This document shows, in pieces, positions 23,357 through 62,098 of a DNA stretch of 64,000 bases (positions are counted from its first letter, which is position 1; every line of letters starts with the position of its first letter). The stretch lies in the IMG/VR virus record IMGVR_UViG_3300046534_001898; one strand, given 5' to 3'. The notes under the pieces are model-generated. The model saw only the letters and a list, made by a program, of their open reading frames with translations, ran no database searches and was not told the DNA's origin. The translations under genes and the position numbers were made by a program. Source of the DNA: an uncultured virus (IMG/VR IMGVR_UViG_3300046534_001898). Its lineage: Duplodnaviria; Heunggongvirae; Uroviricota; Caudoviricetes.

Positions 23357-23660
23357 GAACCACAGAAAGACAGTAAACTTTACAGGCGAGAGAATGAAAA
23401 TCAAAAACTGGAGAGGAGAAACTGTAGACCTAATGCCTTCAAGTGCAAACGACAAGGTAAGAGTTACAAAAGAATCTTTAAGACATCACTACATTGCACA
23501 CAAAGTCTTAAGATCAAGATTAACTCTAGAAGAGTTCAAGCAAAACAACATGCTTGATCTAATGGAGCAAAAAAGGAAAGAGGAACCTTCTTGGTCACAG
23601 ATTGAGAAAATTGTTGAAAAGTATCAGAAAGATTTTGTGTGGATTGAAGAAGCAGCATAA
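23304..23660 (+). CDS. Hypothetical basic protein
   Basis: 118-aa ORF directly before the tRNA cluster. Confidence 0.6.
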   Translation: MTIKEKIKEMVKLQKQYKNHRKTVNFTGERMKIKNWRGETVDLMPSSANDKVRVTKESLRHHYIAHKVLRSRLTLEEFKQNNMLDLMEQKRKEEPSWSQIEKIVEKYQKDFVWIEEAA

Positions 23661-23685
23661 TTTTTGAGGGTGAAACTCCCTTTCT

Positions 23686-23740
23686 GTCCCGATGAGAGAT
23701 TGGTCTCATTTACTACGTTCGAATCGTGGTCGGGACACCA
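23686..23740 (+). ncRNA. Anticodon-less mini-tRNA with encoded CCA
   Basis: gtcccga/tcgggac acceptor, one hairpin (loop gattgg), T arm with ttcgaat, ACCA end. Confidence 0.7.
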
Positions 23741-23741
23741 A

Positions 23742-23814
23742 CCCCTTGAAGCTCTATTGGTTGAGCAGCGGTCTCTAAAACCGTAGTGTGCGAGTTCAAG
23801 TCTCGTCAAGGGGG
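23742..23814 (+). tRNA. Amber suppressor tRNA (CUA) with a Trp-like body
   Basis: Full cloverleaf, anticodon arm gcggt-ctCTAaa-accgt, G73, short variable loop. Confidence 0.88.
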
Positions 23815-23819
23815 CAAAT

Positions 23820-23872
23820 GGTGAGGCATCTAGTTGGAGATGTTCGTGAAGGTTCGATCCCTTCTCTCACCA
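23820..23872 (+). ncRNA. Anticodon-less mini-tRNA
   Basis: ggtgagg/tctcacc acceptor, catct-agttgg-agatg hairpin, gaagg-ttcgatc-ccttc T arm. Confidence 0.7.
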
Positions 23873-23876
23873 CAAA

Positions 23877-23927
23877 TGCTGGGATGCTTAGTTGGAAGCA
23901 CATGGGAGTTCGACTCTTCTCTTGGCA
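23877..23927 (+). ncRNA. Anticodon-less mini-tRNA
   Basis: GU-rich acceptor, tgctt-agttgg-aagca hairpin, T loop ttcgact. Confidence 0.65.
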
Positions 23928-23932
23928 CAAAC

Positions 23933-23987
23933 GGAGGGCGCTAAATTGGTAGTGGTAAGTCTTGAGGTTCGAACCCTCTTCCCTCCA
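23933..23987 (+). ncRNA. Anticodon-less mini-tRNA
   Basis: ggaggg/ccctcc acceptor, cgcta-aattgg-tagtg hairpin, gagg-ttcgaac-cctc T arm. Confidence 0.65.
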
Positions 23988-23991
23988 CTAT

Positions 23992-24065
23992 GATCATGTA
24001 GCATTAAGTGGATTATGCAGTCATCTTCGGATGAAAGATTGGAGGTTCGATTCCTTCTATGATCA
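23992..24065 (+). ncRNA. tRNA-like RNA with the anticodon loop replaced by a cUUCGg tetraloop
   Basis: Acceptor, D and T arms present; middle arm is tcatc-ttcg-gatga. Confidence 0.7.
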
Positions 24066-24070
24066 CAAAT

Positions 24071-24121
24071 ACCGAGAACTCAGATGGGAGTTTCGGGGAG
24101 GTTCGAATCCTTCTCTTGGTA
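24071..24121 (+). ncRNA. Anticodon-less mini-tRNA
   Basis: accgaga/tcttggt acceptor, actc-agatgg-gagt hairpin, ggagg-ttcgaat-ccttc T arm. Confidence 0.7.
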
Positions 24122-24126
24122 CAAAT

Positions 24127-24198
24127 GTCCCAATAGCTCAGCGGCAGAGCAATGGTCTCTAAAACCATAGGTCGCAGGTTCGAACCCTGCTTGGGACT
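24127..24198 (+). tRNA. Second amber suppressor tRNA (CUA)
   Basis: Canonical cloverleaf, atggt-ctCTAaa-accat, perfect gtcccaa/ttgggac acceptor, U73. Confidence 0.9.
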
Positions 24199-24517
24199 CT
24201 AATGATGGCAGTAGATAAATATGGTAACAGTATAAATTTAGAAAAGGTTTGGGGAATTGAACACGGCTTTAGTGAAGGTCGATTTGATTCCTCAATTTTT
24301 TCTTGGACTATTTCGAACAAATATAAATCTCAAAGAGCTATGAATCAAGCTTTAAATGATCTCAGAAAACATAATCCAGCAACCGTAAGAACAAGGTCTG
24401 GAAAAGGAGAGTGGACACAGCTTTATAGCCATTATCGACCTGTTCATGTAAATTATAGTTTCTAAATTTGTCTAAACAAATAGAAATTACTATATTTGTA
24501 TTATAAAATCGATACAA

Positions 24518-31391: not shown

Positions 31392-31475
31392 AATTTTTTT
31401 GGTTTCTATGAAACTTTTACTATCTTTGTTGCGTTATAAAGAAACAGAAAATAAATTTTTGCTATATTTAAAAAC

Positions 31476-31568
31476 ATGAACACAATTAACAACATATCTA
31501 CATGGTCATCTTCAAGATGGAGTTCGAGACAGTCTCGAAGCGATCAAGGTATGTCAAATTTTTTGTGA
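31476..31568 (+). CDS. Putative attenuator leader peptide, Ser/Trp/Arg-rich (30 aa)
   Basis: MNTINNISTWSSSRWSSRQSRSDQGMSNFL, lying between a promoter motif and a terminator. Confidence 0.85.
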   Translation: MNTINNISTWSSSRWSSRQSRSDQGMSNFL

Positions 31569-31592
31569 TGATAGCATAAAATTAAACGATAT

Positions 31593-31627
31593 AAAAAAGC
31601 CTTGGTCATTACGACTGAGGCTTTTTT
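31593..31627 (+). terminator. Attenuator terminator upstream of the Ser/Arg/Trp tRNA operon
   Basis: aaaaaagccttggtc/gactgaggctttttt; the 5' arm can also pair with leader segment gatcaaggt (31542-31550). Confidence 0.85.
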
Positions 31628-31643
31628 GCGTTTAAGATAATTT

Positions 31644-31727
31644 GGAGATGTGACAGAGCGGAAATGTGCCTGTTTTGAAAATAGAGACTTGTATATTGCA
31701 ACGGGGGTTCGATTCCCTCCATCTCCG
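31644..31727 (+). tRNA. tRNA-Ser(UGA)
   Basis: Cloverleaf with long variable arm, loop ttTGAaa. Confidence 0.85.
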
Positions 31728-31800
31728 CAAATGGAATAAAAAGTTATTCCAATTGCGATAGTTTTAGATATTACCGCATATTTATGTAGAAATATATAAT

Positions 31801-32199
31801 ATGAAAGAATGTCTAAGTTGCAAAAGTGAATTAAAAAAGGATACGCAGAAATACTGCTCTTATCAATGTCAGAATGATTATCAAAGAATGAAAAAAGTAA
31901 ATCTTTGGTTAGAGGGAAGGCATGATGGTATGAGAGGTAAAACCGCAACAGCCATGTGGATAAAGTGGTATCTTATTAAACAAAATGGAGAAAAGTGCAT
32001 GGAGTGCAATTGGTGTGAAAGAAATGAACACACTGGAAATATTCCTATAGAACTTGAACATGTTGATGGAGATTTCACTAATAATAAAATTGAAAACTTA
32101 AAATTGTTATGCCCAAATTGTCACTCTCTTACTGGGACTTATAAAGGGGCTAATAAGAAGAAAGGAAGACCACGATCTAAATATTATCGTGGCACTTAA
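31801..32199 (+). CDS. HNH endonuclease inside the tRNA array
   Basis: C..C...ELEHVDG...NN..ENL.LLCPNCHS. Confidence 0.92.
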   Translation: MKECLSCKSELKKDTQKYCSYQCQNDYQRMKKVNLWLEGRHDGMRGKTATAMWIKWYLIKQNGEKCMECNWCERNEHTGNIPIELEHVDGDFTNNKIENLKLLCPNCHSLTGTYKGANKKKGRPRSKYYRGT

Positions 32200-32202
32200 C
32201 AA

Positions 32203-32292
32203 GGAGGGGTTATCCGAAAGATTCTGGGTAGCGGAGCTGGCTTTGAACCCCAGTTGTCTTACGACTTGAGGGTTCGAATCCCTTCCCCTCCT
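32203..32292 (+). tRNA. Atypical tRNA with an ambiguous anticodon (Ser UGA or Gln UUG)
   Basis: ggagggg/cccctcc acceptor, 9-nt loop ctttgaacc, long variable arm. Confidence 0.55.
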
Positions 32293-32350
32293 CTTTTATA
32301 AGCCAGAGGGCTTATATATTGACATTATAAGTCTGGTGGCTTATAAATTT

Positions 32351-32433
32351 GGAAGATTGACAGAGCGGAAATGTGCCTGTTTCGAAAACAGAGGCTTGCT
32401 ACTGCAACGGGGGTTCGATTCCCTCATCTTCTA
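32351..32433 (+). tRNA. tRNA-Ser(CGA)
   Basis: Loop ttCGAaa, long variable arm. Confidence 0.85.
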
Positions 32434-32504
32434 CCGATATAACCTAATGAGGTTATAATTGAATAATATGCATTGATAAGAGCATAATTGAAGTATTGAA
32501 TTAT

Positions 32505-32592
32505 AGAGGTATGGCAGAGTGGTAATGTACTTGCTTGCTAAGCAATGGTCTGTCTAACGGCAGCGGGGGTTCGATTCCCTCTACCTCTACCA
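32505..32592 (+). tRNA. tRNA-Ser(GCU)
   Basis: Loop ttGCTaa, long variable arm, encoded CCA. Confidence 0.88.
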
Positions 32593-32593
32593 T

Positions 32594-32677
32594 AGTAGAT
32601 TGACAGAGCGGTAATGTGCTTGCTTGGAAAGCAACGGCTTGTATTTTGCAACACTGGTTCGATTCCAGTATCTACTA
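32594..32677 (+). tRNA. tRNA-Ser(GGA)
   Basis: Loop ttGGAaa, long variable arm. Confidence 0.85.
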
Positions 32678-32684
32678 CTAAATT

Positions 32685-32758
32685 GGTCTCATAGCTTAAC
32701 TGGACAAAGCATCAGATTTCTAATCTGAGGAGTCGGGGTTCGAGTCCCTGTGGGATCA
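32685..32758 (+). tRNA. tRNA-Arg(UCU)
   Basis: tcaga-ttTCTaa-tctga. Confidence 0.9.
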
Positions 32759-32858
32759 CTAATATCTGAGAAGGTTGTTATTTTTAACACTTTTCTCAGA
32801 TGGAATAATGAAGATAGATAATCGGACGCTTTCCGATTATCTATTAAAAAATTGACAT

Positions 32859-32938
32859 GGGGGTGTAACCGAGGTATTTTTCTAAATTGCTATCCGTAAT
32901 TGAAGTTGAAAATGGGGGTTTGAATCCCTCCGCCCCTT
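32859..32938 (+). ncRNA. Degenerate tRNA-like element
   Basis: gggggtg/cgcccct acceptor and a T arm; no canonical D or anticodon arm. Confidence 0.45.
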
Positions 32939-32968
32939 CTAAAGCTCTCTAAAAGTAGAGAGCAACAC

Positions 32969-33052
32969 ACTGCGGCTACTCATTGGTGAGATAGAAGGTC
33001 TCCAAAACCTTTGCCCGTAAGGGATGTGTCGGTTCGACCCCGACTCGCAGTG
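32969..33052 (+). tRNA. tRNA-Trp(CCA) with a long variable arm
   Basis: aaggt-ctCCAaa-acctt, ccc-gtaa-ggg variable stem, G73. Confidence 0.78.
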
Positions 33053-33058
33053 CAAAAC

Positions 33059-33129
33059 ACAGGTGTAGTTCAATGGTAGAATAGCGGTCTCCAAAACCGT
33101 TGATGGGGATTCGAATTCCTCCACTTGTG
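33059..33129 (+). tRNA. tRNA-Trp(CCA)
   Basis: gcggt-ctCCAaa-accgt, G73. Confidence 0.92.
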
Positions 33130-33148
33130 CAAATTTAGGGTCAGATTT

Positions 33149-33188
33149 TGAGTAAACCCTAAAATAACGTTATTTTAGGGTTTACTCA
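33149..33188. repeat. Perfect 40-bp palindrome between tRNA genes
   Basis: tgagtaaaccctaaaataacgttattttagggtttactca equals its own reverse complement. Confidence 0.95.
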
Positions 33189-33204
33189 GTTTTTGACATT
33201 AAAA

Positions 33205-33291
33205 GGTCTCATGGTAGAACTGGATATTGCACCACCCTCCTAAGGTGGCGACCCGAAAGGGCAACTGGGGGTTCGAATCCCTCTGAGATCA
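33205..33291 (+). tRNA. tRNA-Arg(CCU) with a long variable arm
   Basis: ccacc-ctCCTaa-ggtgg, ccc-gaaa-ggg variable stem. Confidence 0.78.
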
Positions 33292-33334
33292 CAAAAGTTT
33301 TTTGTACATTTGCATTTGGAAAAAAAGTTAGAAG

Positions 33335-34672
33335 ATGGCATATTTAATATTAGAAGGTGAAGGTGAAAATACGTTGGTGCATGAGGATGATTTAAAGTCT
33401 TTCGTGGCTAAAGGTCGTCTTGTATTTAGCATTAATACTGAAAACTTTGATGAGGCAAAAAAAGTGTATAACAATTACCTAGACACTTACTCTGAAAAGA
33501 TTGATATTTCAAAAATTAAAACAACACCTCCAAATATGGAATTTGGTTTTTGTGTCTACGGAGAGCCTTCTCAGGAGATTATAAATTGGGCAGGTGTTCA
33601 TGACTTTAAATTAGAGCCATCAGGCAAGTTTACCAATATTCTGATACCAGAAGACTTTAATCTATTTGAGTGTCTCCAGAAGCCTTCATTTCCCTTCTAT
33701 TTAGATGGTTTCTCTCCCAACCTAAACAAGGAATTACACTTTGGTCATTTTACCAATTTTATTGTGGCTAAAGCGATTCATTGTTTAACCTCAATGAAAC
33801 CCATTGCCATTCTTGGTGATTCCTTAGGGACTCCAGAACAGCATCAAGAAAACCTTAAGCTTGTAAAACAATACTATCAAAAATACGATTATAATCCTGA
33901 GTTATTTTTTGCTTCTGAAATGAAGCTTAAAGATACTTCTATTCTAAAAGAGGGTGAAGGAAAATATGAAGGAACAAAGGTTTTTGATCTAGGTGAAGAA
34001 AAGCAGGTTGGAGTAAAGTCTAACGGCTCTACTTCTTATTTCTATCAAGATATTGCATTTGCTCAGGAGCTTGATAACCCTACTTTGGTTATGACGGGAA
34101 CCGAGCAGAAAGAACACTTCCAGAAAGTATCTCAAATCAACCCTAATGTATCTTATAAAGGTCTGGGTTTGGTTAAACTCAAAACTCAAGATGGAGTTGA
34201 GAAGATGAGTTCTCGTTTAGGTAATACCATCTTCATGAAAGAGGTTATTAAAAACCTAGAGACTGAGTTTGTTGACCCGAAACTTTCGTACAATATTGTG
34301 GCGGGAAAAATCCTTAACTATAAAGTTGTTTCGGAAAAGATTGTAGTTGAAGAAGAGCTTTCTCAACACGATAAGTCTGAGGGTCTTTATATTAGTTATA
34401 CCTGCGCTCGTTTGAAGTCAGCTGGCTGTGAGGTGGTTGATGTTGAGCTACAGGATCACAAGTTAGTTCATGCGTTGATTATGGCTCAGAAACAAATAGA
34501 ACCACATACTTTCTTAAGGGCTGTTTTAGTTTATTGTAAGGAGATCAATAATTTGTATCAAAATCATATAATCAAAGATAATCCAAAGAATAAAGAAATG
34601 TTTACTCAGAAGCTTGCTCAATTAGAGAAGGCTATTCAGTATCTAGGTCTTTATAGTGTTGATCGAGTTTAA
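33335..34672 (+). CDS. argS: Arginyl-tRNA synthetase (compact)
   Basis: FSPNLNKELHFGH (HIGH motif), KSNGSTSYFYQD, KMSSRLG, YISYTCAR. Confidence 0.88.
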   Translation: MAYLILEGEGENTLVHEDDLKSFVAKGRLVFSINTENFDEAKKVYNNYLDTYSEKIDISKIKTTPPNMEFGFCVYGEPSQEIINWAGVHDFKLEPSGKFTNILIPEDFNLFECLQKPSFPFYLDGFSPNLNKELHFGHFTNFIVAKAIHCLTSMKPIAILGDSLGTPEQHQENLKLVKQYYQKYDYNPELFFASEMKLKDTSILKEGEGKYEGTKVFDLGEEKQVGVKSNGSTSYFYQDIAFAQELDNPTLVMTGTEQKEHFQKVSQINPNVSYKGLGLVKLKTQDGVEKMSSRLGNTIFMKEVIKNLETEFVDPKLSYNIVAGKILNYKVVSEKIVVEEELSQHDKSEGLYISYTCARLKSAGCEVVDVELQDHKLVHALIMAQKQIEPHTFLRAVLVYCKEINNLYQNHIIKDNPKNKEMFTQKLAQLEKAIQYLGLYSVDRV

Positions 34673-52735: not shown

Positions 52736-53953
52736 ATGAATGATAAGCTATATATCCCTGAGAGGATTAACGTAGGATACCAACTAAGAGAGGATACTTA
52801 CACAGGAAAATTAGCCTATGTTATCTATTGGGATAGCAAAGGTAAACTAAGAAAAGAAACAGGATGGAATAGTTGGAGGAATCGTCCAGAAGATGTTCAA
52901 TCAGGCGAATACGACTATAAAACAAGAACGTACTCAAACGAAACACTTTACGGAGATCAAGTAAAAGCTCAAGAGTTCGTCAACGAACCAACGGAAGGGT
53001 TTGTCCTTAACAAAGGAGTTGGTGGACAAAGACAATCGTGGGGATGGAATGCTAGAAATGAATACATTCGTGTTTATGATCCTAGAGACTTTGAATTTGA
53101 AATTAGTGTTGCAAATTTATTGTTCATTCTACAGGAATCAAACTCAATCAAAGGTAAAGGTTTAGAGGGTAAATTTGTTTACTCATGGGAAGGTAAAGAA
53201 TTAGTTTTACTTCCAGCTGAATCTTTCGAACACCAGACATCATCAAGACACACAAACCTTCAATCTAAGAAGGTCACTAGAAAAGATATGCTAGCTGGTT
53301 GCCAGTATGTTTCTAAAGATGGGTCAGAACTTGTTTACTTGGGAAGACACGATTATATGAGTCATGACAGGAACAGATACTCTTACTATAATTCTGGAGT
53401 TAATAAGGTTAAGGGTCATGTTTTCTATGATCTTGGAGCGGAAGAAGATGAGTGTCAATATCAGTTTCACAAAGGGTTTACAAAACTAGCTGAAAAAGTT
53501 ACTACTGAAGCTGCGGGAAACTATGCAGACATATTAGAGGAATTTTTGGAGTCAAAGTATGGTTGTCTTGTGAAAGATGTTCAGTACAAAAAAGTAGACT
53601 TGGATTGGAGTGAGTTGATGACAAAAAAAGATTCACATGGATGGAAAGAATACCCTGAAAAGGAACTTTTTATTGTTAATGGAGCCAAGGTAGCTTTATC
53701 AACGCTTAATTACAGCGATGCGAAGGATAGCTATTATCATAAGGCTAACTCAAGAACTAAAAACCCACACTTCGAGGTTAGTAGAAATTATGTGATCTCA
53801 TTTAAAGATGGGAGCATCGTTAAAAATTACGCTAACAGAGAGGATACTTATTATACCCCAGACGAAGCTTTCTCAGCTGTTGAGGCATATGATATGAACA
53901 TCATACTAGAGAGTGGGAAAGAAATAACATACAACGAATACTTTAACGATTAA
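52736..53953 (+). CDS. Phage hypothetical protein
   Basis: 405-aa ORF; no function recognised. Confidence 0.65.
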   Translation: MNDKLYIPERINVGYQLREDTYTGKLAYVIYWDSKGKLRKETGWNSWRNRPEDVQSGEYDYKTRTYSNETLYGDQVKAQEFVNEPTEGFVLNKGVGGQRQSWGWNARNEYIRVYDPRDFEFEISVANLLFILQESNSIKGKGLEGKFVYSWEGKELVLLPAESFEHQTSSRHTNLQSKKVTRKDMLAGCQYVSKDGSELVYLGRHDYMSHDRNRYSYYNSGVNKVKGHVFYDLGAEEDECQYQFHKGFTKLAEKVTTEAAGNYADILEEFLESKYGCLVKDVQYKKVDLDWSELMTKKDSHGWKEYPEKELFIVNGAKVALSTLNYSDAKDSYYHKANSRTKNPHFEVSRNYVISFKDGSIVKNYANREDTYYTPDEAFSAVEAYDMNIILESGKEITYNEYFND

Positions 53954-53957
53954 AATT

Positions 53958-54413
53958 ATGTCAACTAAACAAACAAACGACACAAAAGTACAAGCACTAC
54001 TAAAAGTGGTGGAAGGAAAGAAGGAAGAAGTAAAAAGATTATCCAAGAAACCATCTTGGAGAACTAACTGCGCTTTTACTTTCGATGACAAAACTGGAAT
54101 GAGCATGAAAATGCTTAATCTAAATACTGCTAATAAAGAGGAAGCAATCATTCAAGCTCTTTCTTGGTTAATACAAAAAGAGTCCGCTTATTCTCAAGCT
54201 AGAGAAGAATTAGGTTTGGACGAAAAAGAATTCCAATGGAATGGCTTTTTAGTGTCGGATTGGAGAGAGGATTTCAAGAGTAGATTGGAAAGAATTACTA
54301 TCGAGGACAAGAAAAAAGAACTTGAAACTCTTGATAAGAAGCTTTCAAAACTCCTTTCGGAAGAGGCTAGGACTAAGAACGAGCTTGAAGAGATAGAAAA
54401 TCTTCTAAAGTAA
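53958..54413 (+). CDS. Coiled-coil hypothetical protein
   Basis: 151-aa ORF 4 nt after the previous gene. Confidence 0.6.
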   Translation: MSTKQTNDTKVQALLKVVEGKKEEVKRLSKKPSWRTNCAFTFDDKTGMSMKMLNLNTANKEEAIIQALSWLIQKESAYSQAREELGLDEKEFQWNGFLVSDWREDFKSRLERITIEDKKKELETLDKKLSKLLSEEARTKNELEEIENLLK

Positions 54414-54539
54414 CTAACTGATAATCAGCAAGATATAAAAAAGTTTCAAAAATAGTTTGGTAATGAGGAAACTTTTTATATCTTTGTTGCGTTATTAAGA
54501 AAGAGAAATAAAAATTTACACATACTTAGAAACAAGAAA

Positions 54540-54644
54540 ATGAAAACAATGAACACAAATATCGCAATGACTTATGCCCCGATGGGGAATGGTTATGATG
54601 CTGCGCCCGATTATGGCGATAGTAGCGGTACAGGTGTGTTCTAA
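54540..54644 (+). CDS. Putative attenuator leader peptide, Tyr/Ala/Pro/Gly/Asp-rich (34 aa)
   Basis: MKTMNTNIAMTYAPMGNGYDAAPDYGDSSGTGVF, lying between a promoter motif and a terminator. Confidence 0.85.
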   Translation: MKTMNTNIAMTYAPMGNGYDAAPDYGDSSGTGVF

Positions 54645-54670
54645 GTTTTGAACATATAAATGACTTGAAG

Positions 54671-54707
54671 AAGTCCTGTACCAACTAAAAGGTACAGGAC
54701 TTTTTTT
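54671..54707 (+). terminator. Attenuator terminator upstream of the Tyr/Pro/Gly/Asp/Ala tRNA operon
   Basis: aagtcctgtacc/ggtacaggactt plus a T tract; leader segment ggtacagg (54627-54634) is perfectly complementary to the 5' arm. Confidence 0.9.
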
Positions 54708-54755
54708 ATGTCCAAAAATGAGATTGAAAAGTTGATCTCAATAAAAAAAATACAT

Positions 54756-54838
54756 TGTGAGGTGGCTGAGTGGTTAAAAGCGCCAGACTGTAAATCTGGT
54801 CTCTTCGGAGTTCGGGGGTTCGAATCCCTCCCGCACAA
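54756..54838 (+). tRNA. tRNA-Tyr(GUA)
   Basis: ccaga-ctGTAaa-tctgg, long variable arm. Confidence 0.9.
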
Positions 54839-54901
54839 CAGAAATGTTCTTTGACGTATTGGAGTGATTAAAATGGGAAGGTAACCATCCTTCCCAAAAA
54901 T

Positions 54902-54974
54902 CTGGATGTAGCTCAGTTGGCAGAGTGCTTGCTTTGGGAGCAAGAAGCCGCAGGTTCGAGTCCTGCTATCCAGA
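54902..54974 (+). tRNA. tRNA-Pro(UGG)
   Basis: cttgc-ttTGGga-gcaag, C1:G72, A73. Confidence 0.92.
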
Positions 54975-54980
54975 CTTAAT

Positions 54981-55064
54981 CGAGATGACAATTTGGGTAC
55001 GCCCATTATTGGCGGTACTAGGATTGATCATCTTAGTTTTCGGGTTCGAATCCCTACATTTCGA
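54981..55064 (+). ncRNA. Degenerate tRNA-like element
   Basis: cgagatg/catttcg acceptor, T loop ttcgaat, enlarged D region, loop ttgatca. Confidence 0.45.
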
Positions 55065-55068
55065 CAAT

Positions 55069-55213
55069 CAAAGTATAGCTTATTGGTAAAGCGCCCCTTG
55101 GAGAATGGTAGGTTCGATTCCTCCCAGCGTGACTAAAAAAAATATCATCACGTTGTAGTTTATTGGTAAAACAATGTTTAGGAGAATGGTAGGTTCGAAT
55201 CCTCCTGCTTTGA
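55069..55213 (+). ncRNA. Pair of tRNA-Pro-like units with reciprocally swapped acceptor strands
   Basis: caaagta pairs with tgctttg of unit 2; cagcgtg of unit 1 pairs with cacgttg of unit 2. Confidence 0.6.
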
Positions 55214-55224
55214 CAAATTAAAAT

Positions 55225-55309
55225 GGGGGTACGCCAGAGTTGGAGAGCTTGGAGCGGTCTGTAAAACCGTTGGCGAAAGCCTGAGTAGGTTCGAATCCTA
55301 TTACCCTCA
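55225..55309 (+). tRNA. tRNA-Tyr(GUA)
   Basis: gcggt-ctGTAaa-accgt, long variable arm. Confidence 0.85.
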
Positions 55310-55314
55310 CTTAT

Positions 55315-55388
55315 CTTGATGTAGCTCAGTTGCGTAGAGTACCTGCCTTGGAAGCAGGGAGTCGCTGGTTCGAGTCCAGCCATTGAGA
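55315..55388 (+). tRNA. tRNA-Pro(UGG)
   Basis: cctgc-ctTGGaa-gcagg. Confidence 0.9.
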
Positions 55389-55399
55389 CAAATAAAAAT

Positions 55400-55474
55400 C
55401 TAGTTGCGATACATTGGCGTGTTTACCTCACTTGGACTGAGGGTTGCTTGAAGGTTCGACTCCTTTCAACTAGA
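55400..55474 (+). tRNA. tRNA-Pro(UGG) with an atypical D arm
   Basis: cctca-ctTGGac-tgagg, ctagttg/caactag acceptor. Confidence 0.75.
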
Positions 55475-55479
55475 CAATT

Positions 55480-55553
55480 GCAGGAGACGCATAAATGGTG
55501 GTGCGCCAGCCTTCCAAGTTGGAATAGAGTCGGTTCGATCCCGTCCTTCTGCA
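55480..55553 (+). tRNA. tRNA-Gly(UCC)
   Basis: ccagc-ctTCCaa-gttgg. Confidence 0.8.
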
Positions 55554-55558
55554 CAAAT

Positions 55559-55631
55559 GCGGTATTCGTATATTGATTGATTACGTCTGGTTTCCATCCA
55601 GAAGAGGGCAGTTTGATTCTGTTATACCGCT
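55559..55631 (+). tRNA. tRNA-Gly(UCC)
   Basis: tctgg-ttTCCat-ccaga, U73. Confidence 0.8.
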
Positions 55632-55709
55632 CAATAAGTCACATTGTCTAGGCATGGCGCAATGTGAGGAAGGTTAGGGTGAAAACCCTATTTGTAAGAC
55701 TGTCTGCAT

Positions 55710-55781
55710 GCGGAAGTAGCTCAGAGGCAGAGCATTAGGTTTCCAACCTGAGGGTCGAGATTTCGAAATTCTTCTTCCGCT
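55710..55781 (+). tRNA. tRNA-Gly(UCC)
   Basis: ttagg-ttTCCaa-cctga, U73. Confidence 0.85.
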
Positions 55782-55822
55782 CAAATGTGTGCATATGGGG
55801 ACAGTCGCTCTGTCTCCGCCAT

Positions 55823-55895
55823 GCGGTATTCGTATATTGGTTGATTACACCACATTGCCAATGTGGAGAGGGCAGTTCGATTCTGCTATACCGCT
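55823..55895 (+). tRNA. tRNA-Gly(GCC)
   Basis: ccaca-ttGCCaa-tgtgg, U73; paralogue of the 55559 gene. Confidence 0.87.
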
Positions 55896-55928
55896 CAAAA
55901 AGTTATTAGTTCTTTAAAAACTAAAAAT

Positions 55929-56001
55929 AGTCCAGAGGTGTTAATGGTAACACGCCTCCCTGTCACGGAGGAAATTGCGGGTTCGATTCCCGTGTGGACT
56001 G
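55929..56001 (+). tRNA. tRNA-Asp(GUC)
   Basis: cctcc-ctGTCac-ggagg, G73. Confidence 0.9.
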
Positions 56002-56120
56002 CAATTAAAAGGTGTTCGGATTCGAACGTATGCAAAGAAGAAGCGATGATTGTACATATTAAATCGTGAAGTACCTTAGTGTTAGGGCGCAAGCCAAACA
56101 CAGCACCTTTTTCTTTATTC

Positions 56121-56197
56121 GGTTTTATATGCTGCTCTGGTGAGTGGATTTGCCCTGTCACGGCTCAAAAACGAGGGATCGTAACCCTCTAAGACCG
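56121..56197 (+). tRNA. Degenerate tRNA-Asp(GUC)
   Basis: gcc-ctGTCac-ggc, ggtttta/taagacc acceptor, atypical T loop. Confidence 0.55.
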
Positions 56198-56201
56198 CTA
56201 T

Positions 56202-56273
56202 AGTGTCGTAGTTTAAAAAATAGAATTCCTCCGTTAGAGGGGGCGGGTATAGGTGAGAGTCCTGTCGATACTA
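56202..56273 (+). ncRNA. Degenerate tRNA-like element
   Basis: agtgtcg/cgatact acceptor, 6-nt middle loop, T loop tgagagt. Confidence 0.45.
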
Positions 56274-56277
56274 CTAT

Positions 56278-56351
56278 AGTGATGCAGCATATTGGTGTAT
56301 GGCGCTACGTTGTCAGCGTAGAGATTGCGGGTTCGAATCCCGTCATTACTG
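56278..56351 (+). tRNA. tRNA-Asp(GUC)
   Basis: ctacg-ttGTCag-cgtag, G73. Confidence 0.87.
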
Positions 56352-57164
56352 CAAATTATTAACTTTATAAAATTAGAAAACATGGATGACTTGGGGGCGA
56401 TAAGCTGAATAAAATCGAAAACAGAAAAAAAACAATTGGATCACGAAACCATAGGAAGCTTAAGAAATATTCCGACAACTTTAATGAGATGTTTGATTTC
56501 TTTTTGAAATCATCTCATAGTGGATTACTGGAGTTTTGCGGCTCAGGTGTTAGTGTTGAATCCGACCCGAATTCTCCAGACGGCAAATTTTGCTTTAGGA
56601 AATATGAAAACGGTCATAATGATTGGCATGTCACTCGTCATCCTAATATTTTGTATCATGTGGTGAGGGGTAAAAAGAGTTTCGGACTTTGGGTAAAACA
56701 ATGGTCGGAAGGAATTGCAGAATGTTCTTTTACAAAAGAAGAAATCATTCAAGAATTCACAGATAGAGATTTAGTAATCCCTAAAGGATTGATGAAGAGT
56801 TTTGATGACTCAATTCGGAAGGAAAAACAAAAACGTTATGATAGAGATTTACGAGAATTGGAAAGAACTAAATGATATTGAAATTTGCAACAATGTTGTT
56901 GCCGACATTGAAGTTGGATTAGTTTTAATCGAAAAGAGAAGCAAAAGGAAATGTATTATAGATGGTAAATCTAAAAACACCATTTCCATTTGGGGAACAA
57001 AAACTTCAAAAGAAGGAATCAATTGCGCTCAGTGGACTCAGTTAGATGGGAAGCACGGAGCAGTTGCTAACTTCTTTAAGTCTGATGAAGTGATTGAAGA
57101 TGTTTTAGCTTGGAAAGATGCCAAAATTAGAAAAGTGGCGCAGAAGTATAGAAAATAATAAAAT

Positions 57165-57238
57165 GGGGACGCATGTGCCAAGGCTGGCGAGGATGCTTTG
57201 CAAGTAACCTGTGGTGAATTCGATTTTCACCGTCTCCA
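57165..57238 (+). tRNA. tRNA-Ala(UGC)
   Basis: G3:U70, loop ttTGCaa. Confidence 0.8.
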
Positions 57239-57398
57239 CTAAAACAAAAGATGATAGTTACCGCATTGGCTGACTGACGAGAGCTACGTCAATAGTTATA
57301 ACAAGGGTTGTGTAGCGTTTTGATTTTAAACCTTAGCGGGTTTAAGGGATTTGAATCATAAGAACGACTTGTATTGCTTTTTACTTTTGTTTTTATTT

Positions 57399-57455
57399 GG
57401 GGAGGTATAAGAGGTGTAAACGGTATACCCAAGGGTTCGACTCCCTTCCTCTCCA
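57399..57455 (+). ncRNA. Anticodon-less mini-tRNA with Ala identity elements (G3:U70, A73)
   Basis: ggggagg/cctctcc acceptor, aaggg-ttcgact-ccctt T arm, a single middle hairpin. Confidence 0.7.
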
Positions 57456-57485
57456 CTAATAGTAGAAATAATAATTTATAAACAC

Positions 57486-57558
57486 GGGGCTGTAGCTAAA
57501 CTGGCTTAGCACCTCCCTTGCACGGAGAAGCATGTGGGTTCGACTCCCATCAGCTCCA
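57486..57558 (+). tRNA. tRNA-Ala(UGC)
   Basis: ggggctg/cagctcc acceptor, ctcc-ctTGCac-ggag. Confidence 0.92.
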
Positions 57559-57571
57559 CAACATTTTAATT

Positions 57572-58645
57572 ATGAAACAAATTACGTTATTTCCTATGCA
57601 ATCTACAGATGACTTGCATAGAGTTAAATTGGGAATTGATCCCACAAGCGATAAGCTCCACTTGGGTCATTTGGCTCCTTTAAGAATTGCACGAAAGATG
57701 CAGGAACGAGGAAAGCACTTGACATTGGTTTTAGGTACGTTTACAGCTCAAATGGGCGATCCTTCGGGACGAGATAAAGCTAGACCTATTTTACCAGCGG
57801 AAGAGGTTAAGCAGAACGGAGAGAAGCTTTTAGAACAAGCTTCTAAAGTTTTGATCGAAGGTTTTGATGTTTTTAGAAATGGAGATGTTTTCGATAAGAT
57901 GACAGTTCCAGAATTAATGGCATTGGTTTCTAATTTTACATTGAAGAGAATTACATCGAGAGATGCTTTTCAGCTTAGAATTGAAAACAACCAGTCAATT
58001 TCTATTCAGGAATTGATTGTCCCAGTTCTTCAGGGTTTTGACAGTGTTTCCTTGAAGACTGAAATCGAGATTGGAGGTTCTGATCAGTTGTTCAACTTTC
58101 AATTGACCAGAGAATTGCAACAGATGCATGGTCTTGAACCAGAGGTTTGTGTTATGACTCCTATCTTGAGTGGGACTGACGGTAGGAAGATGTCAAAATC
58201 TTTAGGGAATTGCATCTTTTTGGATGAGACTCCTGAAAACATGTTTGGTCTTTGTATGAGTATTTCGGATGAAGTTATGGATGAGGAATTTATTCCAATA
58301 TTAACTGATCTAAAAGACTTGGAAGAAAGTCCAATAAAAAGAAAGATGCAAATGGCGTTTGATATCGTGGAACAGATTCACGGAATTAATGCGGCTAGAT
58401 TGGCTCAGAAGCATTTTGAATCTACAATTCAGAATAGACAGCTTCCGCAAGACATTAAAACAACCAATCACAAAGATATCATTGATATCATCAAAGAAGT
58501 TAGAAACTGTAGTGGTTCTGAAGCTATGAGGTTGATTAAAGGTGGTGGAATTAAGATTGATGGAAAGAAGGTCGAGGAGCGTTGTGAAGTCAATCAAGGT
58601 GTTGTTGTAAAGGTTGGTAAGAGAGACTTTGTAGAAGTCATCTGA
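57572..58645 (+). CDS. tyrS: Tyrosyl-tRNA synthetase
   Basis: GIDPTSDKLHLGH, GDPSGR, LQGFD, GGSDQ, KMSKS and a C-terminal S4 domain. Confidence 0.96.
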   Translation: MKQITLFPMQSTDDLHRVKLGIDPTSDKLHLGHLAPLRIARKMQERGKHLTLVLGTFTAQMGDPSGRDKARPILPAEEVKQNGEKLLEQASKVLIEGFDVFRNGDVFDKMTVPELMALVSNFTLKRITSRDAFQLRIENNQSISIQELIVPVLQGFDSVSLKTEIEIGGSDQLFNFQLTRELQQMHGLEPEVCVMTPILSGTDGRKMSKSLGNCIFLDETPENMFGLCMSISDEVMDEEFIPILTDLKDLEESPIKRKMQMAFDIVEQIHGINAARLAQKHFESTIQNRQLPQDIKTTNHKDIIDIIKEVRNCSGSEAMRLIKGGGIKIDGKKVEERCEVNQGVVVKVGKRDFVEVI

Positions 58646-58649
58646 TAAT

Positions 58650-58723
58650 GGGGGCGCATGTGCCAAGGCTGGCGAGGATGCTTTGCAAGCAACCTGTGGT
58701 GAATTCGATTTTCACCGTCTCCA
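58650..58723 (+). tRNA. tRNA-Ala(UGC), near-identical to the 57165 gene
   Basis: G3:U70, loop ttTGCaa. Confidence 0.8.
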
Positions 58724-59118: not shown

Positions 59119-60261
59119 ATGAAACTGAATTCTGTAGAAGAAATAAGGGAGACAAGTATTGAGAGATTTGTTGCAAAATACAAATTGAAGCATAAAGATT
59201 ATGGACATAAGTTCAGTCTTAAATACGATCAGCTTGATACTCCTAAGAAACCAGCTGCAAATGAGTGTAGAGGGATTGTTCTTTCAAACAATTTAGAAGT
59301 TCTTTCTATGCCTTTTGCTAGGTTCTCAAATTACAATGAGACTTCTCGGAAGGATATAGATTGGGAAACTGCAACGTATTGGGAGAAGACTGATGGAACA
59401 ATGATTCAATATTACTATGATCATATTATTGATAAATGGTGTGTTGGAACTACTGGTACAGCGGAAGCTGTAGATAATGTTTCTAGTAGAGATAAGATCA
59501 AGCAAATTGAGAATCATTATGATTTCAACTTGACTGATTTGTTTTACAAGGTTTGTGAAGAAAACGGGATTGACTTAACACAATGCGAAAAAGAAAATTA
59601 CACTTTCATATTTGAGCTTGCTACTGAATGTAATATTGTCATCAATAGCTATGAAAAAAGGCGTATAGTCCTTTTGGGGATTAGAGACTTAGCTTCTTTA
59701 AAAGAATTGTCTCAAGATGATTTGGATAGATGGGCAGAGGCTTTGAGTTGCGAAAGACCAAGGCAATACTTTTTTGAGTCTGAAACAGAAATGATTTCTT
59801 CTCTAAAAAATGTAAAGCATGGTGATGTTAATTTTGAGGGGTATGTAGTTGTTGATCAGAATCATAACAGGGTAAAAGTTAAATCTAATACCTACATTAT
59901 ATTCTCTCAGTTCAATGGAGACATTGAATCCAGATGGAGGTTAGTGGATGTGGTTATTAGCAACGAAATAGATGAGGTAGGTTCTTACTTCCCAAATCTA
60001 TTGGAACCCATGAGAAGCATTGAAAAGAAGTATAAAGAATTAATCGCTCCGATACAAGAAAAATTTGAGTTCCTAAAGGAAAACATTGACTCACTTGAAA
60101 AGAAGGAATTCTTTATCGAGGCTCAAAAGGCAGTTAGCTTCGATAAGAAGAAGAAGATTCTTTTGGGTGTAATGAGCCAACTTCAAAGAGATCGTAATAT
60201 TGATTTCAATGATGCGGTAGATAAAATTGATAAAAGGAAATTGTATAAACTTTTGAAGTAA
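59119..60261 (+). CDS. T4 Rnl1-like RNA ligase
   Basis: ECRG...PF.RF.N, EKTDGT, TFIFE, EGYV, RVKVKS..Y. Confidence 0.9.
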   Translation: MKLNSVEEIRETSIERFVAKYKLKHKDYGHKFSLKYDQLDTPKKPAANECRGIVLSNNLEVLSMPFARFSNYNETSRKDIDWETATYWEKTDGTMIQYYYDHIIDKWCVGTTGTAEAVDNVSSRDKIKQIENHYDFNLTDLFYKVCEENGIDLTQCEKENYTFIFELATECNIVINSYEKRRIVLLGIRDLASLKELSQDDLDRWAEALSCERPRQYFFESETEMISSLKNVKHGDVNFEGYVVVDQNHNRVKVKSNTYIIFSQFNGDIESRWRLVDVVISNEIDEVGSYFPNLLEPMRSIEKKYKELIAPIQEKFEFLKENIDSLEKKEFFIEAQKAVSFDKKKKILLGVMSQLQRDRNIDFNDAVDKIDKRKLYKLLK

Positions 60262-60601
60262 TGGAAAAAATAGAAATAACCAAAGAAGATTTACAGACCT
60301 TTATGGATGATGTAAACAAGGGTGTAGGTTGGTCAGATACTTCTTATAGAATATGTGAATTTGTAGGTATTGACCCTACAGATGGGGTTTAAAACGACAG
60401 ATAAAATGGGTTGGAAAAGCACATTAGACTTAACTAGAGACGAAGCAGTTTCGCTAATTCAAAAAAGGATGGCGAATCTTGATGAGTTCTCTGATAGTGA
60501 ACTAGAAGAAATGATTGAGGGTCTCGGTTATGGAGAGAATACTGAGCTGCCACATTACGGTTGCAATTTTTCAATAGTGGATTAATATAAAATTAGAAAC
60601 A

Positions 60602-62098
60602 ATGGCTGGATTAAAAATTACAGGTAAGGACTTATTAGAGATTGGTTTCGAGAGTGGAAAAACTCTTGGGGTGACTCTTGATGTCGTTAGAAAAGGTTAC
60701 AAGCGTGATCACTGGGATGATGTAACTCCAGTCTTGAAGAAGATGTTGGCTGATCCAGAGGCTTTCTTGAATCACAATATTCTTGGGAGAGCTGCTGAGA
60801 CTTTAATCGTTAAGACAGAATTCGACCCAACCGTTGCTATCAATGACGAAAGTGTTCGTTACGATGTTTATGGTAAGGAAGGAATTGAGCAGGGAGCTTT
60901 CGATCAAATTGATTGGGCTACTAAGTTGCCAGTTGCTATTAGAGGAGCTTTAATGCCAGATGCTCACCAAGGATATGGTTTACCAATCGGAGGTGTACTT
61001 GCAACTGATAACGCTATTATTCCTTACGGAGTAGGTGTTGATATCGGTTGTAGAATGTGTTTGACAGTTTATGACACTAAAAGCGATTTCATTACTGGAA
61101 ACAGAAAGTTCTTAGCTGATATCTTGAGGAAGAATGCTTTCTTTGGAATCAACGGAAACGACATTACCCTTGAGCATGAGATTTTGGATAACATCAATGA
61201 GACTGATGTGGTCTTTGCTAGAAATTTAATTGATAAAGCGCAAGCTCAATTAGGAACTTCTGGTGGAGGAAATCATTTCATTGACTTTGGACATGTTGAT
61301 ATCACTGATGTTAATAACGAGTTTGGATTAGAAATAGGAAGGTACTTTGGTATCTTGTCACACTCAGGATCGAGAGGTTTTGGTGCTAAGATTTCTAATG
61401 AGTATACCGAAAGAGCGAGAGCTTCTTGTATGCTTCCATCACAAGTTAAAGACTTGGCTTGGTTAGATATGGATTCTCAGGATGGTCATGAGTATTGGGT
61501 CGCTATGAATTTAGCGGGAGATTATGCTTCGGCTTGTCACGAGAAGATGCATGAGAGAATATCGACTGCTCTTGGTATTGAAGAAGTCGGAAGAGTAGAG
61601 AATCACCACAACTTCGCATGGAAGGAAATGGTGAACGGCAAGGAGGCTATTGTTCACCGTAAGGGAGCGACTCCAGCTGGTGAGGGAGTTATGGGAATCA
61701 TACCGGGTTCGATGGTCTCAAAAGGATATATCGTTCGTGGTAAAGGGAATCCACACTCTTTATCTTCAGCTTCTCACGGAGCAGGAAGACTACACTCAAG
61801 AACAAAGTGTAAAGAGTTGTTCAACAAAGAAACAGTAGCTGCAACGTTGAGAAACGCTGAAGTAACACTTATTGGTGGAGGTCTCGATGAGGCTCCAGAT
61901 GCTTACAAAGATATTGACACAGTTATGTCTTACCAGAATAACTTGGTTGATATTGTAGGAAGTTTCACTCCACAAGTTGTTCGTATGGCTTCTAGTTCTG
62001 AAGAAGGTCTTTCTTGGAAGGAACGTAAAGATAAGAAGAAAAAAGACCAAGAACGTAAAATAAGACAAAGTAAAGAAAGAGAGCGTAAGATGCGTTAA
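60602..62098 (+). CDS. rtcB: RtcB 3'-phosphate/5'-OH RNA ligase
   Basis: MPDAH.GYG.PIG, GVDIGC, GGGNHF, HSGSRG, HHN, HRKGAT, HGAGR, DEAPDAYK. Confidence 0.97.
   Translation: MAGLKITGKDLLEIGFESGKTLGVTLDVVRKGYKRDHWDDVTPVLKKMLADPEAFLNHNILGRAAETLIVKTEFDPTVAINDESVRYDVYGKEGIEQGAFDQIDWATKLPVAIRGALMPDAHQGYGLPIGGVLATDNAIIPYGVGVDIGCRMCLTVYDTKSDFITGNRKFLADILRKNAFFGINGNDITLEHEILDNINETDVVFARNLIDKAQAQLGTSGGGNHFIDFGHVDITDVNNEFGLEIGRYFGILSHSGSRGFGAKISNEYTERARASCMLPSQVKDLAWLDMDSQDGHEYWVAMNLAGDYASACHEKMHERISTALGIEEVGRVENHHNFAWKEMVNGKEAIVHRKGATPAGEGVMGIIPGSMVSKGYIVRGKGNPHSLSSASHGAGRLHSRTKCKELFNKETVAATLRNAEVTLIGGGLDEAPDAYKDIDTVMSYQNNLVDIVGSFTPQVVRMASSSEEGLSWKERKDKKKKDQERKIRQSKERERKMR

Follow-up and report, generated by a model that had tools for sequence, protein, structure and literature searches.

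Why should an array of phage tRNA genes stand behind a short open reading frame (ORF) that is enriched in codons for the very amino acids those tRNAs carry, and that is itself followed by what has the form of an intrinsic terminator? Phage tRNA genes are usually discussed as helpers in codon usage, or as making good the tRNAs that are destroyed in infected cells; to our knowledge, little has been established on the control of their expression. The locus considered here lies within a 64,000-nucleotide stretch of DNA from an uncultured virus (the whole of this 64-kb stretch is referred to as 'the window' in what follows), which is part of a large uncultured phage. Taking its sequence together with RNA-folding models, we propose that positions 54456-54707 very probably constitute a ribosome-mediated transcription attenuator, one that would regulate the phage's own tRNA genes. 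The elements of the unit, and the array behind it, are as follows.

54456-54486, + strand: Bacteroidota-type promoter (-33 element 54456-54459, -7 box 54479-54486, spacing 19 nt)
54540-54644, + strand: leader ORF, 34 codons plus stop codon (54642-54644)
54551-54565, + strand: region 1, which pairs with region 2 in the full-length MFE fold; candidate anti-antiterminator
54573-54620, + strand: putative regulatory codon block, codons 12-27, of which 14 of 16 are for Tyr, Ala, Pro, Gly or Asp
54625-54641, + strand: region 2, antiterminator strand, whose core (54627-54634) repeats the opening of the terminator 3' arm
54667-54682, + strand: region 3, terminator 5' arm, with a core (54675-54682) complementary to region 2
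54691-54707, + strand: region 4, terminator 3' arm plus seven T, from sequence and RNA folding
54756-57559, + strand: tRNA array, 12 genes with default ARAGORN settings (Tyr x2, Pro x3, Gly x4, Asp x2, Ala x1)
56489-57158: two small ORFs inside the tRNA array
57572-58645, + strand: tyrosyl-tRNA synthetase (TyrRS) gene, Pfam PF00579 (tRNA-synt_1b), E 1.9e-50, directly 3' of the last tRNA

The leader ORF begins 54 nt past the -7 box and ends 111 nt ahead of the first tRNA. A preliminary description, made from the letters of the sequence, had picked out 54540-54707 for its leader peptide and codon usage, and both the 34-residue peptide and its codons are as it had quoted them: Ala is written with four different codons, Gly with three and Pro with two, and there are three identical Tyr and three identical Asp codons. 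The amino acids served by the array make up 17 of 33 leader residues, against 25% expected (binomial P 0.001). Under strict wobble rules, the tRNAs of the array decode 14 of the 33 codons, and the leader also holds Met, Asn and Thr codons for which the array has no matching tRNA. That the leader is GC-rich for this genome, as had also been remarked, is borne out by a GC fraction of 0.46 in 54550-54649 versus 0.23-0.25 immediately upstream.

The alternative pairings are readily seen. The 8-nt segment 54627-54634 is the same as 54691-54698, with which the terminator 3' arm opens, and can form a perfect 8-bp pairing with 54675-54682 that would exclude the terminator; the segment ends 7 nt before the stop codon, and on all of these points the preliminary description was correct. 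The terminator itself (54667-54707) has 11 strong base pairs, extendable to 16, that close a loop of 8 nt and lead into seven T; its hairpin has a predicted stability of -24 to -27 kcal/mol. A simple consensus terminator scanner missed this hairpin because the stem continues into the T run, but it is recovered by RNA folding. Folded as a whole, the leader region reaches -64.7 kcal/mol (z -6.16), with none of 200 shuffles equally stable. A single near-identical variant of the leader, found on contigs from four DNA runs, differs by four substitutions and one insertion, none of which falls inside the antiterminator or the terminator core; the variant adds no covariation and does not contradict the model.

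Behind the terminator, and separated from it by 48 nt, comes the first gene of the array. Rfam agrees with ARAGORN on the tRNAs of 54756-57559, and relaxed settings add further Asp and Ala genes along with one odd tRNA. With Pfam identifying the synthetase, the three programs uphold the earlier statement that the clearly canonical tRNAs behind the leader are only those for Tyr, Pro, Gly, Asp and Ala, with TyrRS in addition. The TyrRS gene is possibly co-transcribed with the array; its relatives (58% identity) have no tRNAs close by. Just downstream, and near the arrays of the window, lie genes for RtcB and an Rnl1-like ligase; a search for relatives of the former returned one distant one only.

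We suggest the following course of events. Host RNA polymerase would initiate at the Bacteroidota-type promoter and transcribe the 34-codon leader, with a ribosome occupying the leader while polymerase proceeds to the terminator. Should aminoacyl-tRNA for Tyr, Ala, Pro, Gly or Asp be scarce, the ribosome would be expected to stall within codons 12-26, leaving 54627-54634 free to pair with the emerging terminator 5' arm, such that the terminator hairpin is blocked and polymerase can read through into the twelve tRNA genes, and perhaps into TyrRS. With fast decoding, the ribosome would come to rest at the last codons or the stop codon and cover 54627-54634; the terminator could then form, and polymerase would stop at the T run. 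As one leader holds mixed codons, stalling within any one of several codon families would be enough, and it is in this sense that we infer the 'five-input OR gate' for tRNA shortage of the preliminary description. Since the products would be the same tRNAs that the leader tests, the arrangement would provide negative feedback on tRNA supply, with one loop per array. The scheme supposes that the leader is translated, that the hairpin functions as a terminator, that stalling acts as the switch, and that the physiological signal is one of tRNA loss, mismatched codon usage or amino-acid starvation.

A second unit of the same kind, heading a different array, is present in the window.

31398-31627, + strand: putative paralogous attenuator (promoter 31398-31428; leader ORF 31476-31568; antiterminator 31542-31550; terminator 31593-31627)
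31644-33292, + strand: tRNA array of the second unit, by ARAGORN (Ser x4, Arg x2, Trp x2)

Here the 30-codon leader ORF holds 9 Ser, 3 Arg and 2 Trp among 29 codons, with five different Ser codons, so that a leader rich in Ser, Arg and Trp stands ahead of a Ser/Arg/Trp array and the tracking of tRNA content extends to the paralogue (14 of 29 residues, versus 12% expected; P 1.4e-6). Its 9-nt antiterminator segment, 31542-31550, is complementary to the 5' arm of its own terminator, and only 3-4 of 1000 shuffles do as well. The 17-nt promoter core at 54479-54495 recurs identically at the second leader; these are the two exact sites in 64 kb, where 0.28 would be expected. The two units (at 54456 and 31398) align from the promoter through the first leader codons and diverge afterwards, which suggests that the leader varies with the array whilst the frame of the device stays constant. 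On a marine contig that is about 85% identical over several segments, the Ser/Arg/Trp leader is still in frame despite a 12-nt deletion. Behind the second array lies an ORF (33335-34672) that resembles a diverged class-I synthetase, with a sub-threshold match to ArgRS, and for which no relatives were found.

Beyond the window, relatives were approached through a neighbouring protein of 405 residues, which has relatives on viral contigs of 140-572 kb. One of these, a complete viral record of 362 kb (G001), encodes a protein 51% identical to it and has 61 tRNA matches gathered in few arrays. Three of its arrays are large, and each is preceded by a leader of 29-30 codons, set between a promoter common to all three and a terminator; a search of all viral_contigs for the 21-mer of this promoter gave three sites, at these three leaders only. 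The leaders are rich in Thr/Tyr/Gln/Pro/Lys/Gly, in Val/Leu/Cys and in Met/His/Ile/Ser/Asn/Trp/Arg, respectively, these being the amino acids of their own arrays, and five kinds of Leu codon are found in the leader that precedes five tRNA-Leu anticodons. A 501-kb record (G010) contributes four more leaders, bringing the set to nine: in one, five Gln codons in a row precede three tRNA-Gln genes; in another, nine Leu codons precede six tRNA-Leu genes; and the other two are rich in Lys/Phe/Ser/Trp/His and in Asn/Cys/Ile/Asp/Glu/Met/Tyr. Across the units, leader ORFs run from 17 to 38 codons and share a similar N-terminus, that of the leader at 54540 included.

For the preliminary description, the proposal would fall if homologous leaders did not track tRNA content. 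All pairings of the nine leaders with the nine arrays were scored, by the share of leader residues that belong to the amino-acid set of the array, standardised to background. The leaders do track their arrays: a leader's own array ranks first in eight of nine cases and second in the remaining one, and none of 200,000 random pairings of leaders with arrays reached the observed total fit. Taken singly, the leaders give binomial P values from 0.25 down to 2.7e-7. The weakest (G1b, P 0.25) was scored with our first definition of its array, which was too wide, in that another leader, standing before its Phe/Glu/Gln/Asp/Ala part, divides the array. Synonymous codons within the leaders also correspond to different isoacceptors of the array, with the leader at 31476-31568 carrying Ser codons of both boxes. 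Such a mixture fits a device that samples isoacceptors, and is unlike the tandem identical codons of the trp and his leaders.

The match between leader and array leaves room for a different signal, namely that the same architecture responds to amino-acid starvation or poor charging, with synthetase genes as useful an output as the tRNAs. To a stalled ribosome a missing tRNA and an uncharged one are indistinguishable, as established for attenuators of the trp and his type, and a synthetase gene (or what resembles one) does follow both arrays in the window, TyrRS in the one case and the diverged class-I synthetase-like ORF in the other. Set against this, most leaders of the relatives head arrays that have no synthetase in the DNA fetched, many of the leader amino acids have no synthetase present, and a starvation for amino acids is not relieved by making more tRNA. 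We regard starvation as the signal to be rather unlikely, and continue with tRNA supply as the preferred reading.

The wider survey drew on 80 loci gathered by alignment of the 405-residue protein, with tRNAs sought in 17 further viral records. Since leaders of this kind differ too much by design for a covariance model, we chose a finder anchored on the tRNAs, which collects ORFs of 12-45 codons that end no more than 70 nt before a terminator, this lying no more than 400 nt ahead of a tRNA cluster; it was run on 132 cluster starts in 20 loci, and on 104 in 19 sources. All nine known leaders were recovered. Acceptance of these small ORFs as leaders was partly by eye; accepted leaders score 1.1 to 6.1, against -1.5 to 1.2 for ORFs read there in other frames. 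Further matched leaders were found in G001 (a fourth), G010 (a fifth), G011 (one), G013 (two) and G017/G020 (three, with the same sequences in both), and one more, with a weak match, in G015. Leaders are thus present in 6 of the 16 tRNA-bearing viral records whose arrays were fetched, or in 7 of 16 if the weak case is counted. The parts fetched from G003, G006-G009, G012, G014, G016 and G019 yielded no credible leader; in the tRNA regions of G003, three terminators near tRNAs were inspected and no leader was found, and in the cultured Vibrio phage Va1 there is none ahead of the first tRNA, the one position considered. The leaders of G011, G013 and G015 are GC-richer, and that of G011 comes with a promoter of the sigma-70 type and a run of purines ahead of its start codon, which suggests that the design occurs in phages of other host phyla; the phages with such units include ones whose promoters and ribosome-binding regions point to different host phyla.

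If these units are attenuators, then each leader should be able to pair with the 5' arm of its own terminator. We compared this pairing with that of 1000 dinucleotide shuffles of the ORF, for the nine leaders of the original set. The leader at 54540 forms a duplex of -16.3 kcal/mol with the 5' arm, a value reached by 4 of 1000 shuffles in one run and by 0 of 1000 in another. Seven of the nine leaders are at or below 13 in 1000, and the pairing sequences are all different: segment and terminator arm differ in step from one unit to the next, and this, at the level of sequence and short of a formal alignment, amounts in substance to covariation. In the G001 clade, the antiterminator segment holds a constant codon position (ORF nt 60-76). 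Two leaders fail, at 697 of 1000 and at 173-182 of 1000. For the former, two terminators stand in tandem and the score is that of the second, whereas the first pairs, as judged by eye, with a segment that starts at the stop codon; the latter has a pairing of only 6-7 bp. Among nine extra leaders from the survey, three pass this simple test, and several of the nine have additional hairpins past the stop codon, which the test ignores.

The position of a ribosome was then modelled by folding each transcript to the end of the terminator 5' arm, with 27 nt around each A-site codon forced to be single-stranded. For the leader at 54540, the 5' arm is predicted to pair with the leader at a probability of 0.80-0.88 for an A site at codons 2-26, 0.32 at codon 27, and 0.05-0.08 at codons 28-34 and the stop codon. 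In all nine leaders, the modelled probability is high with the A site on the matched codons, and collapses over the last 8-10 codons. The block of matched codons ends, therefore, where masking of the antiterminator starts, which is the geometry required of an attenuator. Asp27 and the last two Gly codons of the 54540 leader fall inside the masked zone of the model, and so no signal would be expected from them. When the truncated transcript is folded with no ribosome upon it, the antiterminator (2:3) pairing has a probability of 0.67 for the 54540 leader and 0.10-0.99 for the others, such that the antiterminator is favoured in most leaders, although 1:2 pairing appears in the full-length MFE folds. 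The preliminary description had a terminating ribosome masking 54627-54634: the model agrees for this leader, with its 0.05-0.08 at the final codons, but the idea does not carry over to the family, as six of the nine leaders have 14-24 nt between antiterminator and stop codon, and a distance of 0-7 nt is seen only in the 54540 leader and two of those of G010. In those six, on the model, termination in the 'replete' state must rest on a ribosome that has not yet left the tail of the ORF by the time polymerase completes the terminator, or on re-pairing.

These pairings also bear on whether translation of the leader might act by some other route, through access of Rho, through RNase processing of the tRNA precursor or through RNA stability, with a terminator that is constitutive and leaky. 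The anti-antiterminator, weak or ill-defined as judged from that 2:3 pairing of 0.67, and the six extra leaders of nine in which a simple antiterminator is not significant, would both sit comfortably with such a view. It does not, though, account for segments that in seven of nine leaders complement their own terminator 5' arm beyond what shuffles achieve, each with a different sequence, nor for matched codons that stop exactly at the modelled onset of masking; a Rho-dependent route would, moreover, give the opposite sign, since stalling uncouples the ribosome and favours termination. We consider these other routes improbable, and reject the Rho-dependent one on the strength of the antiterminators and of the sign.

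A reading in which the GC-rich stretch is an untranslated, structured RNA (a small RNA, or a decayed tRNA-like element) with its own terminator, and in which the ORF is incidental, is more improbable again. The fold is indeed far more stable than that of shuffles, as given above, and is GC-rich in an AT-rich genome. The ORFs, on the other hand, recur at every leader with 17-38 codons and a similar N-terminus, the frame is kept across the 12-nt deletion of the marine relative, and the amino-acid content follows the arrays to a degree met in no permutation, which a non-coding RNA leaves unexplained; in addition, no Rfam family reaches threshold for the leader region. We reject it on the recurrence of ORFs matched to their arrays.

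Returning to attenuation as the preferred reading, the promoter deserves comment, since it bears on the host. The window encodes ClpB-like, FtsH-like and UvrD-like proteins in addition to RtcB and the Rnl1-like ligase. A megablast of 53900-58700 against GenBank phages gave no match, and a tblastn search of the same phages with the 405-residue protein spread over those of Vibrio, Bacillus, Pseudomonas and Prevotella, and is taxonomically uninformative. The Bacteroidota promoter pattern, by comparison with 4.47 sites expected, occurs at 16 sites in the window, a number equalled in none of 100 shuffles, and most of these sites stand just ahead of ORFs. A consensus for the -7 box is described for Flavobacterium and Bacteroides in PMC7641319. 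The 17-nt promoter core has 10 matches in viral_contigs, all in unrelated contexts without tRNA arrays, and the promoter pattern has none in genome_contigs. Upstream of 47 long ORFs there is enrichment of A only, and no enrichment of G. The A-only enrichment fits initiation without a Shine-Dalgarno sequence, as in Bacteroidota. From the promoter pattern and this absence of G enrichment, the host is probably a member of the Bacteroidota. The DNA runs in which the stretch is found are labelled as ice, sediment, salt-lake and seawater metagenomes.

A second promoter may lie within the 48 nt between terminator and first tRNA, where 54724-54751 is a weak sigma-70-like match at 9 of 12 positions. 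That the adjacency arose by chance, with an ordinary terminator of a small gene or an upstream operon and a tRNA array driven by a promoter of its own, is scarcely credible, common as inter-operon terminators are, given that the promoter-leader-terminator unit heads both arrays of the window as well as arrays in several other phages, that the match of composition and the antiterminators are far beyond chance, and that the promoters of the window are of the Bacteroidota type, not sigma-70, with no Bacteroidota-type box between terminator and first tRNA.

The proposed attenuator has well-known counterparts. In the amino-acid operons of enterobacteria, the leader of ilvGMEDA carries Leu, Val and Ile codons, and that of thr carries Thr and Ile codons; these 'multivalent' attenuators likewise combine a short ORF of mixed codons with an intrinsic terminator and an antiterminator, such that a ribosome held up at any one codon family lets polymerase read through. 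They regulate bacterial biosynthetic enzymes, however, rather than phage tRNA genes, and tend to use long runs of codons, whereas the phage leaders cover up to seven or more amino acids with several synonymous codons for each; there is also no sequence relationship between the two. The Rfam family for the thr leader (RF00506, Thr_leader), the sole leader-type model to respond, gives a full-length match of 26.4 bits, below its gathering threshold of 55, carried by the terminator and by one long-range stem with a 64-nt insertion. With the trp attenuator of E. coli, the unit shares a four-region logic, in which region 2 either pairs with region 3 or is covered by the ribosome, and, in the case of the 54540 leader, a stop codon near region 2, as in trpL; it differs in having no tandem copies of one codon, in that 1:2 pairing is not clearly dominant, and in its target, tRNA genes.

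The pheST attenuator of E. coli comes closer in its output, being a case of leader-peptide attenuation that acts on a component of translation serving the tested codon, much as TyrRS stands behind the array here, but it senses one amino acid, controls a synthetase with no tRNA genes, and is not from a phage. T-box riboswitches also sense a shortage of charged tRNA, and switch between terminator and antiterminator ahead of translation-related genes; unlike the present units they bind uncharged tRNA directly and have no leader ORF, and no T-box match was returned by Rfam searches at E up to 1, 10 or 0.5. What we find at 54456-54707 is the set of parts that defines an attenuator (a short ORF, enriched codons, an intrinsic terminator and an antiterminator), together with a stall geometry that is seen in the model only.

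Within the openly accessible literature, as far as its listings and abstracts show, we found nothing that links leader peptides or attenuation to tRNA genes, tRNA arrays or phage tRNAs. The words 'leader peptide' and 'attenuator' are absent from the top-ranked papers on jumbo phages, and the accessible part of PMC12619734 has neither word stem. What would be new here, as supported by sequence and models, is the application of a known device, leader-peptide attenuation, to the tRNA arrays of large phages.

What might set the switch in nature? Candidate triggers are the gap in codon usage between an AT-rich phage and its host, the loss of tRNAs through host defences or shut-off, and amino-acid starvation. 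We would tentatively entertain, as a plausible idea and one on which we would not yet lean, that large phages keep their tRNA genes as self-regulating modules, in which the leader serves as the 'contents list' of its array and a block is switched on when its part of the decoding supply fails, mainly as an answer to tRNA loss. Under that same tentative idea, the loss could stem from anticodon nucleases of the host, from other defences that target tRNA, or from the phage's own shut-off of its host. The RtcB and Rnl1-like ligase genes beside the arrays hint at tRNA damage as a theme, and a further hint in this direction is that the layout is shared by phages whose hosts apparently belong to different phyla.

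As the units recur in several uncultured large phages, including ones that seem to point to different host phyla, this may be a general design as opposed to a curiosity of one genome. If the proposal is true, the arrays would be expressed on demand and autoregulated, and the sorting of phage tRNA genes into amino-acid blocks would find an explanation. A mechanism that textbooks describe for biosynthetic operons would be seen to act on the decoding machinery as well, and would provide a compact, natural, multi-input sensor of decoding capacity.

Beyond the main array, whose tRNA genes (Tyr, Pro, Gly, Asp and Ala) are followed by a gene for TyrRS, several features of the window touch on tRNA:

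23742-23815, tRNA that ARAGORN designates Pyl (anticodon CTA)
24127-24199, tRNA with anticodon CTA, likewise labelled Pyl by ARAGORN
31801-32199, HNH-endonuclease-like ORF, between the first and second tRNA-Ser genes of the Ser/Arg/Trp array
about 32200-32290, degenerate tRNA-like stretch, after the HNH-endonuclease-like ORF
33335-34672, ORF of 445 residues, directly 3' of the Ser/Arg/Trp array
59119-62098, Rnl1-like RNA ligase and RtcB, immediately downstream of the main array and TyrRS
62115, tRNA-Met, after the ligase and RtcB

The Rnl1-like ligase, identified by a weak Pfam match to the C-terminal domain of T4 Rnl1, and RtcB look like a tRNA repair module placed near the main array. At 57399-57543, adjoining tRNA-Ala, Rfam tmRNA models also match, but below their threshold of 47 bits (scores of 33.4 and 26.2 bits); these matches are probably no more than tRNA-like sequence. 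For the 445-residue ORF that trails the Ser/Arg/Trp array, the sole match was to the class-I arginyl-tRNA synthetase catalytic domain, again sub-threshold (E 4.5e-4), and a pattern scan of viral_contigs found no relatives of it.

The presence of two CTA-anticodon tRNAs within 23660-24200 suggests amber suppression, or recoding of TAG in part of the genome. Both sit within a crowded series of short tRNA-like fragments whose ends resemble T-arms; the stretch lies immediately 3' of an ORF and is without a leader. Among the leaders, several antiterminator and terminator arms bear a likeness to the conserved T-arm sequence of tRNA, which may be coincidental or may reflect an origin of terminators in the ends of tRNAs.

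A Bacteroidota-type promoter pattern is enriched in the window (16 sites, against 4.47 expected), with 13 of the sites on the + strand and many shortly upstream of ORFs, and no G enrichment was found ahead of the starts of 47 ORFs; each of these two observations points to a Bacteroidota host for the phage.

Leaders were also found in other viral records, two of the loci being in the 501-kb record G010:

L114, 903-1050, leader with five Gln codons in a row, ahead of three tRNA-Gln genes
L113, 710-1570, two serial leaders in one array

The Gln leader, separated from its tRNA genes by two tandem terminators, is the simplest member of the family and textbook-like. At L113, the first leader is followed by a small ORF and a pair of tRNA-Met genes, and the second lies immediately 3' of that pair, without an intervening promoter. 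Array-matched leaders of higher GC occur at four loci (L124, L125, L126 and L130) from records G011, G013 and G015; some carry extra hairpins past the stop codon, and that of G011 has a sigma-70-type promoter, with a purine run preceding its start codon. The leader design of the window is thus shared by phages whose hosts are probably not Bacteroidota.
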